A stretch of DNA of 5,816 nucleotides from a virus (lineage: Duplodnaviria; Heunggongvirae; Uroviricota; Caudoviricetes), in IMG/VR virus record IMGVR_UViG_2706794697_000003. One strand, given 5' to 3'. The notes under the pieces are model-generated. The model had not been told where the DNA came from and did no database searches. It saw only the letters and a list, made by a program, of their open reading frames with translations. Made by a program: the position numbers and the translations under genes. This document shows positions 1 through 5,816 of this stretch, piece by piece. Positions within the stretch are counted from its first letter, which is position 1, and every line of letters begins with the position of its first letter.

Positions 1-14
1 TGTCCAATGTGCAT

Positions 15-48
15 AAAAAAATCCGGAAACAAGTGAGCGTTTCCGGAT
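15..48 (-). terminator. Rho-independent terminator downstream of the portal gene
   Basis: Perfect 10-bp inverted repeat atccggaaac (21-30) / gtttccggat (39-48) with an 8-nt loop. On the plus strand it is preceded by an A-run (15-20), so on the minus strand the hairpin is followed by a U-tract. It lies 33 nt after the portal stop codon (82-84). Confidence 0.7.
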
Positions 49-81
49 TCTTACACAGCCACTGGATCGGTCAACTGATCC

Positions 82-1329
82 TTAACTGATCGGCATTACA
101 CCACCGGGACGCGGATTCATATCTTCCAGGTCGCGGCAGTCATTGGAAGAGTAAATTCCCCAGTTGATCCCGGTGGCGTAGGCTTCAAAACGGGACTTCA
201 TATCCCCGCGCAGTAACGCCCCGGCGTTAAATTTGGCGTAATAAACGCCCTGCTTACTTTTTCGTACCAGTCCGGTGTTGATCCGCTGTTCGATGCGGGT
301 CAGATACGGCACCAGTGAATAGTTGATAAATCCCAGCCCCAGCTCTTCGATATTGTTGAAGGTGGCGCGATCGGTGTTCTGCACCATGTGCAACGGCACC
401 CGGAACAGACGACAGATTTCTTCCAGCTGAAACTTGCGGGTTTCCAGGAACTGACTGTCCTCGGCGTTCAGCGCCATCGACTTCCAGTCCAGCCCCATTT
501 CCAGAATCATCGGGCGGTGAGCATTGCCAAGCCCCGTGTGACACTCCTCAAAATCTTTCTTCAGACGCTCGTAAGCATCCGGCGTGAGCTTTTGTTCCGT
601 ACGCAACACACCGGATGTCACCGCACCATTACTAAACAACCTGGCACCGTGCTCCTCGGTTGCCGCTGCCAGTGAAATGGCCTCACGCGCATACGCAATG
701 GGATTCAGCCCGACAAGTCCATCCAGCGTCAGGGTGCGCACATGCCAGATTTCATTCTGGGTCAACACATCCACGGAACCATCCGGAAACGTCACCTGAT
801 AAACCGGCTGCCACTGGCTGTTCAGCTTCGGTTCCACACAGCCCGGATCTATCGGAAGAAGCTCCACCACTTCTCCCAGTGCCTTTACCTTGTAGGCGTA
901 AAAATTCCCCCGTAGACACAGGCAGACAATAACCAGCTCCCAGAATTCCTGCGGTGTCATGTAGCCATTAGGTTTTGCCGAAACCAACTTATGCAGTCGT
1001 TCATCCACCGCCCGTGTTTTCAGGGTACCGCTGATTTTGTAGAGACTGCAGGGCAGCATACCAACAGACTCTGCCAGCACCCTGACGCAAGAATAGACCG
1101 CCGTCAGGCGCATGGCCCGCTGGCTACTGATCCGCTTTCCGGTATAGGTGTCGTATGACAGCCCGATAGCATCAGCAGTTCTGCTGGCGTGGTCACCGGC
1201 ACATCGCTTTTTCGTTGAAATAATCCCGAAAAGAACACTATTTACCTCCGCCGACAGACTGCCGTGTACGGTCGAGATATCGCGCCACCAGCCACGACCA
1301 GAACAGGCACAGCGCCCCGGCAACAACAA
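82..1329 (-). CDS. Phage portal protein (HK97-family-like); start codon uncertain
   Basis: Long minus-strand ORF directly downstream of the terminase large subunit. The segment [23 protein letters not shown] resembles, from memory, the conserved N-terminal region of HK97-type portals. The ORF-track start at 1329 is a TTG with no clear ribosome-binding site and overlaps the 1238-1420 ORF by 92 nt. The first in-frame ATG is at 1113, which would cut off the conserved motif. The true start therefore probably lies between 1113 and 1329 and may be non-canonical. Confidence 0.75.
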
Positions 1330-1420
1330 AACCCGCCGGGGGATAAATCAGCCAGGCACCATACGCCAGCAAAAGCGCACCCAGCACGCCCACCAGAGGC
1401 GCGAGAATCAGCATGATCAT
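1238..1420 (-). CDS. Small hydrophobic protein (60 aa, two predicted transmembrane helices), hypothetical
   Basis: ATG at 1420 with GAGGT 6-7 nt upstream, 11 nt after the terL stop. Codon usage is E. coli-like (CTG, GCG, GTG rich). The product has two hydrophobic stretches and a charged C-terminus ([14 protein letters not shown]). The overlapping portal-frame translation over the same bases looks like out-of-frame junk (rich in C, W, R). Confidence 0.45.
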
Positions 1421-1431
1421 AATTACCTCAG

Positions 1432-3165
1432 TTAAAGCGAGCGGATCCCGTAGGACTCAATGTGGTCAGACAGCGTGTCTTCTTTCTCGTACAGCATGGC
1501 TCTGCCAACCGCCATAATCAGCGCAACTGCACCATCGATTTTGTTTTCCGCCTGCTCTTTGACGGGTTTCACCACATCATCGTTACCCGGCATGTTTTTG
1601 CCGACCACGTTGCCGATACACCAGGTCATGATGGGATTGCCGTCATGATGAAAACGTCCCGATTCAATCGCTGCTTCCAGCTCTTTCATCGGATCGGACA
1701 TATTGGTGAAGTTCTGGACGATAGTGACGGGATTCAGGTCTTCATCAGCAAGGTCATGTGACAACCCGGTCGCCCCGAAGGGGTCGATGGGTGACTCACT
1801 GACCGGGCTGATTTTGTTCGCCGCTTTGGCCTCCTCGAGGATGTAGCGATAATCCACCTCCGCACCATCGGTAACGGTCAGAACGCCCATTTCCACCCAT
1901 TTCTGAAAGCGTTCGGCTGTCCGTCGATCTTCATTTTTCTCGACGCTGTACACCGTGTCATACGGTACCCAGAAACGCGGGGCCACACTGTAGTAATGCG
2001 TTTTACCGTCAATCTCGCGGGTATAAAGTCGCGCCATGCTGTTCATATCCAGCTTACGCGCCAGGTCAAAGGCCAGAATGCACGGCTGCCCCTCGAACTG
2101 CTCAAGGGTCAGTGATTTATCCTCGCAGCTCTGCCAGCTCACCAAGTTGAAATACGCCGAACGCGCCGACACCCAGATATTGAGGTGTTTTGTTTTAAAG
2201 ACGTTTGCCAGACGGGCGTTATTTTTCGCACGCTGCTGCTGACTTAACAAAAATTCGCGATAAACCGACACGCCAATATTTGGATTGGCTTTTTCCAGCA
2301 CCTGCGGGCCGGTCCAGTCGTCACCTTCATCAACGGTATAGATGATCCCGAACAGTTCATCGTTAGGCACCGAGCCGTTGAGCATCTCGATGACTTCCCG
2401 CCGCTTGTCGTAGCACGGCCCCTCAATGTTGTACCCGGCGGTGGTGATGGCCCACATCAGTGGCTGACGTCGCGCCCCCATCCCGGTAAGCATTGTGGTA
2501 TAAAGCGCATCGGTGGCATGCTCGTGATATTCATCAACCACGGCACAGTGGGGTGATGAACCATCACCTGGGTTGCCGATCAGCGGTTCAAACCGCGCGC
2601 CATCCTCCGGACGGTTCATGTTTGAGGCGTTAACCTCAATCCCGAACGCTTCCGTCAGCATGGGTGTGCGTTTACACATCAGTCGCGCCGGGCGAAAGAC
2701 TTCCCACGCCTGTTTCTCTGTCGTGGCACCGGAATACACTTCCGCGCCAAACTCGTTATCACAGGCAAAACAATACAGGGCAACACCGGCAGAGATTGCT
2801 GATTTGCCGTTCTTACGGGGGATTTCGGTGTACACCTCCCGGAAGCGGCGCAACCGGGTGCCTTTATTGACCCAGCCAAACGCACAGCAGATCACAAATA
2901 GCTGCCACGGCTCCAGCGTGATGGGCATCCGTTTGAATGCCCACTCCCCCTTGGTGTGCGGCAACAGCTGAATAAATTTCGCGGCCCGTTCAGCCAGGTC
3001 CTTGTCGAAGCGGTAACGAAACGACTTACTTTTTTCCGCCATCAGGTCATCAAGATGGCGCTGGCAGGCCTGAATCACAAACTGGCAGGCAACAATCTTT
3101 CCGCGCACGACATCCCGGGCATACTGATTTGCAGCATTTACGTTGGGGTAAGATTTCCGGCTCAT
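1432..3165 (-). CDS. terL: Phage terminase large subunit (HK97-like ATPase plus nuclease)
   Basis: 577-aa ORF with a Walker A-like motif PRKNGKS and a Walker B-like motif AVVDEYHE in the N-terminal half, and a C-terminal acidic-residue region consistent with an RNaseH-like nuclease. Its start overlaps the terS stop as ATGA (3162-3165), indicating translational coupling. Confidence 0.9.
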
Positions 3166-3656
3166 GATTCGATAATTTTCAGAAACGGGTTAGTGGCTTT
3201 CTTCTGCCCCGCCAGGCCAATCAGACGCTGGCGGCTGCTGGGGTCGAGTCCGAGCATTGCCCCCGTGCTGCTCATCTCGGACTCCTGTTCTTTTTTGGCG
3301 GTCAGCTCCGGATTTTTGACCCTGCCGCCCATTGCACCGGTGATGGTGTTGCCCTGTATGGCAATATTTTTCACGGCACGTCGCCAGAACTCATAGGCCA
3401 CGCACCACCGCTCAAGTACCGCCAGGTCAGTCACGCACAGCAGGCCCTGACCGCAGAGTTCTTTGGTTGTCAGTTGCCACATGATCGTGGCGAGAGGGAG
3501 ATCTTCTTCAGCGAACCACTCTGGTGGCTCAACACCTTTGATGGGCGTAAAAACAGGTTCATCTTTGTTCAGGGCTCGCTTGCCGGGGTTTCCGGCCAGC
3601 GCCTTGCGCGCCGTTGGCTTGGGGCGACGCCCGGAACGCCCCGCCGTTCCAGCCAT
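3162..3656 (-). CDS. terS: Phage terminase small subunit (P27-family-like)
   Basis: ORF immediately upstream of terL and coupled to it. N-terminus [30 protein letters not shown] is basic, as expected for a DNA-binding small terminase. I place the start at ATG 3656 because AGGAG lies 8 nt upstream. The ORF-track GTG at 3665 sits inside that ribosome-binding site. Confidence 0.8.
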
Positions 3657-3695
3657 ATGCGGCACTCCTGGTTAAATTTCATTTTTCGCGGGTAT

Positions 3696-3755
3696 AAAAA
3701 AACGATGGGGCGGGCAGTCCGGAAGACGTCAGGTCACAGGGATTTGCCCCGCCCC
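3696..3755 (-). other. GC-rich hairpin in the HNH-terS intergenic region; candidate cos region and/or attenuating terminator
   Basis: 8-bp G/C stem ggggcggg (3707-3714) / cccgcccc (3748-3755) around a 33-nt loop that contains a GACGTC palindrome. On the minus strand it is followed by AUCG and then a U7 tract (plus-strand A-run 3696-3702). HK97-type phages place cos between the HNH gene and terS; that is established knowledge, not something the sequence proves here. Confidence 0.3.
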
Positions 3756-3777
3756 TCCCTACAAGTGAGAATAATTA

Positions 3778-4128
3778 TCACCGGATTCGTTCGCGCGCTG
3801 TTTTCGCTTTATGGCAGGGCCAGCACAGACTCTGCAGGTTGCTGTCTGCGTCTGTTCCGCCATGCGCTTTCGGGATGATGTGGTCGACGGTTTTCGCCTC
3901 GCTCACCACACCGACACGCAGACACAACTGACACAGACCTTTATCGCGCTTCAGAATACGGGCACGAATCACCGTCCATTTTGAGCCATAGCCACGCTGG
4001 TGGCGGCTCAGTCCGCGCTGGTGCTGCACCCAGCCTTCACCGCGATGTTTATCGCAGTAACCCGAACTGTCTGTGGTTGTACCTGCACATCCACGCTTAC
4101 GGCAGGCACGTGGGATTAGTGATGGCAT
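3778..4128 (-). CDS. HNH endonuclease (phage packaging-associated)
   Basis: 116-aa ORF with GAGGT 5 nt upstream of its ATG. It has cysteine pairs and the motif DHIIPKAHGGTDADSNLQSLCWPCH, typical of HNH/zinc-finger nucleases. Its position immediately upstream of terS is typical of HK97-like cos phages. Confidence 0.85.
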   Translation of the reverse strand: MPSLIPRACRKRGCAGTTTDSSGYCDKHRGEGWVQHQRGLSRHQRGYGSKWTVIRARILKRDKGLCQLCLRVGVVSEAKTVDHIIPKAHGGTDADSNLQSLCWPCHKAKTARERIR

Positions 4129-4170
4129 AAATACCTCATACCCTGCGAAATGTTTACCACGATAAAAAGG

Positions 4171-4429
4171 CTACTTAATGCACTGAGTGCGGATATACTC
4201 CTGTGCCCCTTCCAGTTGCATCTGCATCGTCATCAGCCGCTCTCTGAGGGTGAAATAATCCCGTTCAGCGGTGTCTGCCAGTCGGGGGCTGGTTGCATTA
4301 TCCACGCCGGAGGCGGTGGTGGCTTCACGCACTGACTGACAGACTGCTTTGATGTGCAACCGACGACGACCAGCGGCAACATCAGCGCGCAGAGTTTCAT
4401 TTTCAGCTTTCGCATCAGCTAACTCCTTC
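4171..4429 (-). CDS. Rz: Rz i-spanin, C-terminal part only (5' end lost in the N-run)
   Basis: Translation KELADAKAENETLRADVAAGRRRLHIKAVCQSVREATTASGVDNATSPRLADTAERDYFTLRERLMTMQMQLEGAQEYIRTQCIK closely matches the C-terminal two-thirds of lambda Rz as I recall it. It carries Rz1 embedded in another frame. The ORF track joins it to the endolysin only because the N-run translates as X. Confidence 0.85.
4233..4415 (-). CDS. Rz1: Rz1 o-spanin (outer-membrane lipoprotein), embedded in Rz
   Basis: 60-aa ORF MRKLKMKLCALMLPLVVVGCTSKQ... with a lipobox (LVVVGC) and a proline-rich stretch (PPPPP). AAGGAG lies 8 nt upstream of the ATG. It sits entirely inside Rz in a different frame, as in lambda. Confidence 0.85.
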   Translation of the reverse strand: MRKLKMKLCALMLPLVVVGCTSKQSVSQCVKPPPPPAWIMQPAPDWQTPLNGIISPSESG

Positions 4430-4679
4430 NNNNNNNNNNNNNNNNNNNNNNNNNNNNNNNNNNNNNNNNNNNNNNNNNNNNNNNNNNNNNNNNNNNNNNN
4501 NNNNNNNNNNNNNNNNNNNNNNNNNNNNNNNNNNNNNNNNNNNNNNNNNNNNNNNNNNNNNNNNNNNNNNNNNNNNNNNNNNNNNNNNNNNNNNNNNNNN
4601 NNNNNNNNNNNNNNNNNNNNNNNNNNNNNNNNNNNNNNNNNNNNNNNNNNNNNNNNNNNNNNNNNNNNNNNNNNNNNNN
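4430..4679. other. 250-nt run of N (assembly gap or masked sequence)
   Basis: Uninterrupted n characters. It covers the 3' end of the endolysin gene and the 5' end of Rz. Confidence 1.
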
Positions 4680-4965
4680 CCGGTATATCGACTTTGATGT
4701 ACGGGTTAATTTGTCTGGCGACAGTGGCAAGGTCTTTATTCAGGAGGGCTTTGCATTCTGCTTCGGTATACGTTTTACCGAGCATGATGTCTTTTCCGGT
4801 GTGTCCGTGACATACAGTCCATACACCAATGATATCTTTGTATGGTATGTAGCTGACACCTTCCAGACCATCGTTACCACCTGGGCCAGTGATTAACACA
4901 GATGCTATAGCAACAGCCCCACCACCAATAGCAGCTGCAACAGCCTTGCGTAATGATGGCGACAT
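4680..4965 (-). CDS. R: SAR endolysin (phage-21 R-like lysozyme), N-terminal 95 aa only (3' end lost in the N-run)
   Basis: N-terminus [30 protein letters not shown] is a Gly/Ala-rich signal-anchor-release segment. It is followed by [25 protein letters not shown], the catalytic region of T4-lysozyme-like muramidases. Its ATG (4965-4963) overlaps the holin stop as TAATG. Confidence 0.85.
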
Positions 4966-5180
4966 TATTCACCTCTCGCAGCCTTACGCTTGTCTTCTCT
5001 TATTTTGAAATACAGATTTGTCAGATAAGTCAGAAGCCCCAGAAGCAGACTTCCCAGCACACCAATCGCAGCCCACTGTGATGGACTGACCTGATCCAAC
5101 CACTGCAAAAACCAGTAGCCGGCACTGCCGGCGGAGGTGCCGTAGGCAATGCCTGTTGATATTTTTTCCATCTGATACAT
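4965..5180 (-). CDS. S: Holin (phage-21 S-like pinholin), two possible starts M1 and M4
   Basis: 71-aa [74 protein letters not shown] with two transmembrane segments and a charged C-terminus. ATG codons at 5180 and 5171 match the dual-start arrangement of lambdoid holins. It is translationally coupled to the endolysin. Confidence 0.9.
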
Positions 5181-5210
5181 ATCCCGCCCCCCGACAGACC
5201 TGTGCTATCG

Positions 5211-5247
5211 GAAAGAAAAAAGGCCATCAGCAAAACTCTGATGGCCT
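5211..5247 (-). terminator. Rho-independent terminator upstream of the holin (tR'-like position)
   Basis: Perfect 10-bp inverted repeat aggccatcag (5221-5230) / ctgatggcct (5238-5247) with a 7-nt loop. On the minus strand it is followed by UUUUUUCUUUC (plus-strand gaaagaaaaaa, 5211-5220). It ends about 30 nt upstream of the holin ATG. Confidence 0.7.
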
Positions 5248-5291
5248 GAATCACCTTTACCAATATTGTATGAAAAAACACGCACGACTAA

Positions 5292-5320
5292 TTGACAATA
5301 ATTTTCATTTCCATTAAAAA
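5292..5320 (+). promoter_or_regulatory. Candidate sigma70 promoter on the plus strand
   Basis: Consensus -35 TTGACA (5292-5297), a 17-nt spacer, then TAAAAA (5315-5320). The -10 is weak because it lacks the conserved final T. It lies about 35 nt upstream of the plus-strand terminator-like hairpin. Confidence 0.25.
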
Positions 5321-5355
5321 AGATCGCGTAGCATTCTTAATTCATGAGGAACTTT

Positions 5356-5422
5356 ACCCGCCAGCAATCTGAGTAGCGAAAGCTGTTCATCCCCAATGTT
5401 TTTGCTGGCGGGTCCTTTTTTC
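5356..5422 (+). terminator. Plus-strand terminator-like structure (12-bp stem, large loop, T-tract)
   Basis: Perfect 12-bp inverted repeat acccgccagcaa (5356-5367) / ttgctggcgggt (5402-5413) followed by CCTTTTTTCT. The 34-nt loop contains a small AGC-GAAA-GCT hairpin. The T-tract follows only on the plus strand. Confidence 0.4.
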
Positions 5423-5724
5423 TACGGTCCTCCTCCCCGGAGGGGGGCATTTCATTATTTTTCTAATCGTTACTGGTGAGAAGGCGGAAGAAAAAGCCAG
5501 TTCTTCGCCCCTAAATAACAGCATGATTCCAGTCCATGCAAAATCTGATTTCCAGCTCACACATACCGAGCACTGTACAAAAAACCGCCAGCCAAGGCAG
5601 TTAAGAGTGTGTTCCCGGGGTTTGCTTAGAATATTTTGTAAGTTGTCCGAAGAGATATTTACAACACCAGAATGATGCATTATCAGTCCCCTGCCAGAGG
5701 TTCACTACGTAACCTGACCGACAA

Positions 5725-5816
5725 TGAAGTGGCACACTGAATTTGGCCACCTGAACAGAGGTGATATGCTCACCTCAGAACAACACAGGTGCTCCAATGA
5801 AAAAAAGAAATTTTAG
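5725..5816 (+). mobile_element. Left end of an IS3-family insertion sequence (IS911-like), partial
   Basis: The element starts with TGAAGTGG, a TG-initiated terminal repeat typical of the IS3 family. A 7-bp stem gaggtga/tcacctc follows, then AGGTG and an ATG at 5798 encoding MKKRNF, which matches the N-terminus of IS911 OrfA as I recall it. The element runs off the window end. Confidence 0.6.
5798..5816 (+). CDS. IS3-family transposase OrfA, first 6 codons only
   Basis: ATG at 5798 with AGGTG 7 nt upstream; translation MKKRNF, then the window ends. Confidence 0.5.

Follow-up and report, generated by a model that had tools for sequence, protein, structure and literature searches.

An IS911 end upstream of the lysis genes of a defective lambdoid prophage remnant marks a probable rearrangement junction

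INTRODUCTION

When an insertion sequence (IS) lies upstream of the lysis genes of a lambdoid prophage, did it land on the Q activator or the late promoter, and was the insertion itself what disconnected the late genes? In phage lambda, S is preceded by the late promoter pR' at a distance of a few hundred bp. We addressed this question for a 5,816-bp stretch of DNA from a virus of the Caudoviricetes (IMG/VR record IMGVR_UViG_2706794697_000003), the whole of which we refer to as the window. A first-pass annotation, made from the sequence alone, placed an IS3-family element at positions 5725 to 5816, about 545 bp upstream of the holin gene and where Q or the late promoter would be expected. It proposed that the insertion had separated the late operon from its activator or promoter and left a cryptic prophage.

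RESULTS

The window ends in the left end of IS911

Positions 5725 to 5816 aligned with the IS911 elements annotated in Shigella phages Sf6 and SfII over 92 of 92 identical bases (E = 6e-39), which confirms the proposed IS3-family element and specifies it as IS911, a textbook member of the family that counts Shigella among its usual hosts. The left inverted repeat (IRL) begins at position 5725 on the + strand (TGAAGTGGCACACTGAATTTGGCCACC...) and opens with the terminal 5'-TG of the IS3 family (TGAAGTGGCACAC...). Comparison of both ends of one IS911 copy (L013) revealed a GGCCACC core and flanking positions common to IRL and the right inverted repeat (IRR), in an otherwise imperfect match. The orfA leader follows IRL, and orfA itself starts at 5798 to 5816 on the + strand (ATG AAA AAA AGA AAT TTT AG, encoding MKKRNF), with six codons in the window before the element runs past its end. 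The orfA gene points away from the phage late operon, which occupies the - strand, and is antisense to it.

Sibling IS911 copies at the same junction were 1,249 bp long and 99.2 to 100% identical to the reference element. The element was complete at 1,249 bp in L024, L025, and L039 to L044, and 1,242 bp of it could be read in L013. In L013 and L040, OrfA was complete (100 amino acids; PF01527), OrfB contained rve and rve_3 domains, and an AAAAAAG motif, of the A6G kind at which IS911 joins orfA (HTH) and orfB (DDE/rve) by a programmed -1 frameshift, was present at the orfA/orfB overlap, with fused 389-amino-acid products annotated. The 92-base terminus of the window represents the left end of IS911, an element common in Shigella, and the interval between it and the holin ATG at 5180 (positions 5181 to 5724) measures 544 bp, essentially the spacing first estimated.

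The prophage is defective regardless of IS911

All phage genes of the window are on the - strand. At the end of the window opposite IS911, positions 1 to 98 are 100% identical to the terminal 98 bp of an element annotated as "IS4-like element IS4 family transposase," and an IS4 transposase gene adjoins in sibling genomes. The window is bounded by IS ends on both sides, with 98 bp of IS4 and 92 bp of IS911; the contig ends in these two elements, and the assembly therefore breaks there.

The IS4 end cuts the portal gene, which is a pseudogene (positions 82 to 1238) in which the last 33 of 413 codons are replaced by IS4 and roughly 25 codons at the start are in a different frame. A tblastn search with the intact L012 portal protein found homology ending at position 100, close to the IS4 boundary at 98/99. 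The portal sequence is split between ORFs at 82 to 1329 and 1104 to 1238, with the true N terminus in the latter, and siblings have only a 343-amino-acid product called. A 60-amino-acid ORF on the - strand is listed between the portal gene and the large terminase gene (1432 to 3165), followed by genes for the small terminase (3162 to 3665) and an HNH endonuclease (3778 to 4128). The Rz/Rz1 and lysozyme genes occupy 4171 to 4965 and include a run of 250 masked bases (N; 4430 to 4679) over the lysozyme/Rz overlap, such that ORFs listed across the run are artifacts of the mask. The holin gene (4965 to 5180) is apparently intact and encodes a class II (P21-type) holin (PF04971; E = 1.5e-35).

The holin opens with MYQMEK, in which a second Met codon follows the first by three codons, an arrangement like that of the dual-start P21 holin, and the N terminus of the lysozyme (4468 to 4965) is rich in Gly and Ala, suggesting a signal-anchor-release (SAR) endolysin. 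From these sequence features, holin and lysozyme probably constitute a pinholin/SAR-endolysin pair.

In siblings, the region beyond the portal gene contains IS elements and chromosomal genes and is without head and tail genes. The portal lesion, together with the lack of head and tail genes, makes the prophage nonviable. It is cryptic, as had been proposed, but its defectiveness is overdetermined and does not depend on IS911.

IS911 abuts an untranslated late leader with predicted terminators

Positions 5181 to 5724 (- strand) constitute a truncated, untranslated late-operon leader that represents the stretch from a tRNA cluster to the holin gene, with one half of the IS911 target still joined to holin. 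This leader is 99.0 to 99.7% identical to three uninterrupted loci (L001, L002, and L003), in which the sequence runs "...gaccgacaa/tgcaccattctgg" (with the slash marking the IS911 site) for a further 135 bp before reaching tRNA-Gly/Thr/Arg/Ile. The match to these relatives ends exactly at 5724 to 5726, with the TG common to both by chance.

Uninterrupted relatives were of two types, which have the same empty site (...GACCGACAA/TGCACCATTCTGG). Type A comprises L003 and other S. sonnei chromosomes, including L007 (CP022457.1; S. sonnei 2015C-3566), and is 100% identical to the window over 1 to 4429 and 99.7% identical over 4680 to 5726. Upstream of the site, type A has 135 bp of leader and then tRNAs CAT (annotated as Ile), Arg-TCT, Thr-TGT, and Gly-TCC. 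Type B, represented by E. coli FDAARGOS_944 (L002) and a metagenome contig (L038), shares this leader and these tRNAs with type A but then continues into a DUF1133-type Q.

The earlier reading that positions 5250 to 5724 hold no convincing coding sequence was borne out, with no match to Pfam or PHROGs for any ORF in this interval. Likewise, no Q antiterminator gene was found within or next to the interval when ORFs were searched against these collections. The sole long ORF (5387 to 5680; - strand; 97 amino acids) is only sporadically annotated in siblings, and a two-base difference between types A and B within 5678 to 5683 shifts the ATG of this 97- or 98-amino-acid ORF by one codon (MIHH... 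versus MHH...). An "MMHH" protein was rejected as a third allele, being the same DNA for which one annotation pipeline uses an ATA start. In an 87%-identical E. coli relative, a 63-amino-acid ORF is annotated at a different place in the leader. The 97-amino-acid leader ORF is probably not a gene.

Searches for transcription signals in the leader yielded no Q-like ORF and a single weak promoter-like site (9 of 12 positions, with 1.2 such sites expected by chance). No promoter-like site directed out of IS911 toward holin was found on the - strand between 5600 and 5816, and the leader had no Rfam match at an E value of ≤1. A Q/pR' module is absent from 5250 to 5724. In contrast, terminator-like sites were abundant, with 7 in 4900 to 5816 versus 0.9 expected. 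The strongest is a predicted intrinsic terminator at 5221 to 5247 (- strand), with a 10-bp stem followed by TTTTTTCTTTC about 40 nucleotides upstream of the holin ATG (-18.8 kcal/mol; z = -4.1), and it is conserved in L003 and L013. A second, weaker terminator-like hairpin with a T run lies at 5583 to 5602 (- strand; -11.1 kcal/mol; z = -1.9). The late genes behind this leader thus appear to be shielded by predicted terminators that would need antitermination.

The + strand, which is antisense to late transcription, has a strong predicted hairpin at positions 5356 to 5423, with a 12-bp outer stem (-28.8 kcal/mol; z = -4.4) followed by UCCUUUUUU, with a second GC-rich hairpin at 5427 to 5448. 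The 5356-to-5423 hairpin has no Rfam match, and its predicted fold looks like the terminator of a rightward transcript.

The window probably joins two paralogous remnants

Three leader bases distinguish the two types: type A has G/A/C at positions 5572, 5678, and 5681 (L003 and L007), and type B has A/C/T (L002, L025, L040, and L042). The window carries the type B allele (5572 A, 5678 C, and 5681 T), which is the one accompanied by IS911 in complete genomes. Two markers in the holin gene (4992 G and 5019 T) instead match type A. Overall, the window follows type A over 4747 to 5019 and type B over 5572 to 5681, indicating an allele switch somewhere within the identical stretch from 5020 to 5571. 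The possibility that the three leader bases are polymorphisms private to an IS-bearing lineage was rejected, as they are the normal type B allele also in L002 and L038.

S. sonnei 2015C-3566 (CP022457.1) holds both copies. Its type A copy (L007) has the late genes of the window with an uninterrupted leader. Its type B copy (L040) has the order lysozyme, IS2, holin, ISEc20, leader, and IS911 and is 100% identical to the window over 5187 to 5816. In the complete genome, the two remnants are in inverted orientation about 2.7 Mb apart, and the exact repeat between type A and type B markers is 385 to 550 bp long. The hybrid of the window was found again in independent draft contigs L046, L065, and L066 (~5.78 kb each), which equal window positions 100 to 5723 and recur in at least 18 samples. 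A protein matching the hybrid was found on 5- to 10-kb contigs in 23 blocks of the collection. The hybrid allele pattern was not found in IMG/VR, versus three matches for the parental pattern, and type A late genes beside this IS911 were seen in short-read drafts only and in no complete genome read.

The window is probably a real recombinant of two remnants and less likely an artifact of assembly. An artifact would mean that the contig crossed the shared exact repeat and took the type B exit. The source genome would then have type A late genes followed by an uninterrupted leader, the tRNAs, an ant module, and Q, with no IS upstream of this holin, and its type B copy would be ISEc20, leader, and IS911. 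Such an error is consistent with the ends of the window, which lie 92 to 98 bp inside IS elements as expected of a draft contig, with the identity of the two copies from 5187 (or 5020) to 5571/5677, and with the standard arrangement found in every complete genome read. In addition, scaffolds L022 and L023 show assemblers splitting the repeat arbitrarily, and some drafts end before the discriminating bases, such as L047 at 5656. However, contigs equal to window positions 100 to 5723 recur across the samples noted above, in assemblies whose other contigs break off some tens of bp before reaching an IS end. These recurrent contigs carry the type A markers together with 5678 C and 5681 T; had there been a fork at 5572 or 5678, they would have broken off, as L047 does. 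Furthermore, we saw no matching contigs in which an A/C/T leader was reached from the Q side of type A. We therefore consider an assembly artifact unlikely, while giving it more weight than any of the other alternatives discussed below.

One apparent sign of a fork in the leader did not hold. Five draft contigs ended exactly at 5680, but an exact-sequence lookup had selected those ending there, and partial ORFs are cut at many positions from 5614 to 5680. The ends of draft contigs L014 to L018 and L047 to L050 are scattered 1 to 110 bp short of the IS911 boundary, with the cut ORFs filed as "partial" proteins.

IS911 marks a probable rearrangement junction

The left junction of the window was found in identical form at eight or more fully read loci, of which six belong to genomes proven distinct, and in many draft assemblies. 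Its carriers include four IMG/VR contigs, draft contig L013, and seven chromosome-scale S. sonnei assemblies. The presence of the identical junction in independent contigs (L013, L022 to L025, and L039 to L044) indicates that it is not a one-off error. We did not find the left junction in GTDB species representatives, JGI metagenomes, or complete E. coli genomes.

A simple IS911 insertion is flanked by a 3-bp (rarely 4-bp) direct target duplication. In the window, CAA at 5722 to 5724 adjoins IRL and would be one copy of a 3-bp duplication after a simple insertion. At the eight loci in which the right end of the same IS911 copy could be read, CAA was never repeated at that end, and CAA followed by tgcacc never occurred. 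The right flank instead began with GGT, CCC, or CGC. GGT belongs to the interior of IS600 (L025, L039, L040, L041, L043, and L044), CCC belongs to the interior of tRNA-Ile (L042), and CGC begins an unrelated sequence (L024). Beyond IS911, L042 is collinear with L002 except for the absence of L002 positions 9546 to 9919, a gap of 374 bp relative to type B that comprises the remaining leader and three tRNA genes. In S. sonnei, the genes beyond the IS600 fragment are DUF1391, a cI-like repressor gene, cro, ydaT, ydaV, DUF977, and QueH, and these early genes are inverted relative to both an intact type B prophage and the lysis genes. In L025 and L044, the early-gene run closes with a further IS600 copy, and neither Q nor a tRNA is within reach.

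The lack of a target duplication indicates that this IS911 copy took part in a later rearrangement and leaves its identity as IS911 unaffected. The first-pass annotation had suggested looking for the right end of the element and its target duplication; the right ends were indeed readable in siblings, but none of the three kinds of flank contained a duplication. IS911 is a rearrangement junction rather than a simple insertion.

If IS911 were a simple, self-contained insertion in the window, the remaining leader, tRNAs, and Q would lie directly beyond it, and late expression would be little affected because Q-modified polymerase reads through terminators and IS elements. The clean IRL end at a site known in its empty form fits this view. 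So does the IS911 of phage Sf6, which is likewise antisense within an antiterminated operon of a viable phage and whose removal leaves the timing of late transcripts unchanged. However, searches of both strands of the genome and viral collections did not find the expected right junction (IRR, 2 to 5 nucleotides, and TGCACCATTCTGG), and the eight loci with the same left junction have other right flanks without duplication of CAA. The right flanks of the four IMG/VR contigs with the left junction do not match either. Moreover, the leader of the window is 100% identical to that of the S. sonnei copies with IS600 on the far side. We accordingly rejected simple insertion, which we regard as improbable for the window.

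IS elements recur between Q and the lysis genes

Other IS elements were found in the interval between Q and the lysis genes. At a site equivalent to window position 5187, about 6 bp upstream of the holin ATG, L013 to L015, L025, L039 to L041, and L044 carry an IS110-family ISEc20-like element with a 398-amino-acid transposase, which leaves a 538-bp leader fragment flanked by two IS elements. IS2 occupies the holin/lysozyme boundary with a 5-bp overlap, and IS600 lies next to the tRNAs. A Shigella-like chromosome (L031; CP026827.1; positions 4686 to 4777 and 5455 to 6216) has an independent IS911 in the same antisense orientation ~0.68 kb further upstream, beyond the tRNA cluster, and two more IS911 copies flank its lysis genes. 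In E. coli LR-51 (L021; 14589 to 16271), an IS911-like element of the ISEc52 family lies ~2.5 kb upstream of essD and abuts a lambda-exonuclease gene that is truncated and encoded on the other strand, another IS-marked loss of the Q region.

Rather than neutral decay, these repeated hits could reflect selection in Shigella to uncouple an intact holin and endolysin from Q, in which case IS elements would act as insulators of a potentially lethal lysis module. We think that this is quite improbable, more so than simple insertion.

Q and pR' lie well upstream of the IS911 site

In type A, Q is a 128-amino-acid protein of family PF06530, and its stop codon is followed after 5 bp by a promoter-like sequence (TTGACC-18-TATATT). 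In L003, this pR'-like promoter (6565 to 6594) is followed by an isrK sequence (6601 to 6677) that contains a terminator (6656 to 6672). Such an arrangement, a promoter directly after Q with a short terminated leader RNA, is present in L003 and absent from the window. Past the tRNAs, type A has an ORF6N antirepressor gene and matches to sRNA-Xcc1, C4, c4-a1b1, and full-length isrK (77.5 bits). The L003 segment from 6565 to 7604, which lies outside the window, resembles the antQ-isrK-anrP module of Gifsy-1 and the c4/ant module of P1, here in a Shigella prophage remnant.

The empty site in L003 is 1,680 bp beyond the Q stop codon and 1,640 nucleotides downstream of the isrK/pR' start, and in type B (L002), the Q stop codon is 634 bp from the site. 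The IS911 site is in the transcribed late leader, 135 bp downstream of the four-tRNA cluster and well downstream of pR', and not where Q or the late promoter sits, as the first-pass annotation had expected. That IS911 landed in or replaced the Q/pR' region itself, as might be supposed from the position of lambda pR' a few hundred bp upstream of S and from the lack of anything Q-like in 5250 to 5724, is barely credible given that both uninterrupted types place the site downstream of the four tRNAs (and in type A also downstream of the isrK/C4/antirepressor module), with Q ending 634 or 1,680 bp beyond the site and the pR'-like promoter and isrK terminator directly after Q.

DISCUSSION

How the lysis genes were separated from Q

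In all genomes in which the far side of IS911 was readable, the lysis genes are without an intact unit of Q, pR', tRNAs, and leader. The lysis genes are cut off from Q and pR' by rearrangement, through deletion or inversion, and not by the polarity of an insertion. The first-pass proposal of a separation between the late operon and its activator or promoter therefore stands, with IS-mediated deletion or inversion rather than the insertion itself as its cause.

We favor, as a reasonably probable account, a model in which a type B leader with a full-length IS911 is an old rearrangement junction that was joined to type A late genes by exchange. The host of this lambdoid prophage remnant would be Shigella, most likely S. 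sonnei. In this model, a type B prophage with a DUF1133-type Q would first have received IS911 in its leader, at ...GACCGACAA/TGCACC..., 135 bp downstream of the tRNAs. Later events at the right end of IS911 would then have replaced the other half of the target. In one lineage, an adjacent deletion of 374 bp may have taken three tRNA genes, and in S. sonnei, a junction to the interior of IS600 may have formed, beyond which the early region lies inverted. As a consequence, transcription from pR' under Q would no longer enter the leader and lysis genes, and the leader terminators would stop polymerase not modified by Q. Finally, the type B leader with IS911 would have been joined to the type A genes (HNH endonuclease, small and large terminases, and the portal gene truncated by IS4), most likely by homologous exchange in the several-hundred-bp stretch common to both remnants. 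We infer this order of insertion, deletion, inversion, and exchange from present-day arrangements, and the region beyond IS911 in the genome of the window itself is likewise modeled on that of its siblings.

In the S. sonnei genomes, where the early region beyond IS911 is inverted, the lysis genes that follow this leader no longer lie downstream of any Q or pR'. The holin, endolysin, Rz, and terminase genes would be transcriptionally stranded, since no promoter-like site leads out of IRL and the leader terminators are predicted to stop unmodified polymerase.

For annotation, these genes are best treated as a stranded fragment without an activator and should not be scored as an inducible prophage. 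Because one Shigella genome may contain two near-identical remnants, short-read contigs from this region may be recombinant or chimeric, and extending the window from a sibling genome can give the wrong neighbor. Beyond annotation, the significance of the locus is small.

Comparison with known systems

The IS911 in the nin region of Sf6 (AF547987) is the same element, to which the 92 bp of the window are 100% identical. In both cases, the transposase gene is antisense to phage transcription inside an operon that depends on antitermination. Deletion of the Sf6 element resulted in faster lysis with unchanged timing of late transcripts. Since Sf6 is viable with an antisense IS911 upstream of Q, IS911 by itself need not block late expression. 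The Sf6 element is a simple insertion with a 3-bp duplication (GTT/GTT) that disrupts ninG upstream of Q in a viable phage. In contrast, the IS911 of the window lies downstream of Q in the late leader, lacks a duplication at its locus, and sits in a dead prophage at the breakpoint of a deletion or inversion.

The DLP12 prophage of E. coli K-12 (quuD ... essD-rrrD-rzpD) has the same family of lysis cassette, and RefSeq calls close relatives of the window genes essD, rrrD, and rzpD. DLP12 also resembles type A in its small Q of PF06530 and in a variable "moron" interval between Q and holin. This interval carries IS5 in nmpC in DLP12. Thus, the cargo between Q and holin is a porin gene in DLP12 versus tRNAs and an antirepressor module here, and the IS elements differ. 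Unlike in DLP12, the IS element here is also the breakpoint at which the cassette lost its Q.

Gifsy-1 of Salmonella contains an antQ-isrK-orf45-anrP locus (PMC4825925). The type A sibling has a similar series directly after Q, consisting of a pR'-like promoter, matches to isrK and to the C4 and c4-a1b1 RNAs, and an ORF6N antirepressor gene. This module is outside the window, and if our favored model is correct, it would no longer be connected to these lysis genes.

Lastly, IS1, IS2, IS4, IS600, and IS911 have been described as expanding and strain variable in Shigella, in a study that also lists ISEc20 in S. sonnei 53G (PMC7373316). Four of the elements found here (IS2, IS4, IS600, and IS911) belong to that set of five. 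The locus analyzed here is likewise a mosaic that varies by strain, with IS4 in the portal gene, IS911 in the leader, and IS600, IS2, and ISEc20 in siblings. The decay affects the regulatory leader of a prophage rather than a chromosomal gene, which is no difference in kind. The locus is an ordinary, already known form of IS-driven prophage decay that does not depart from established biology.
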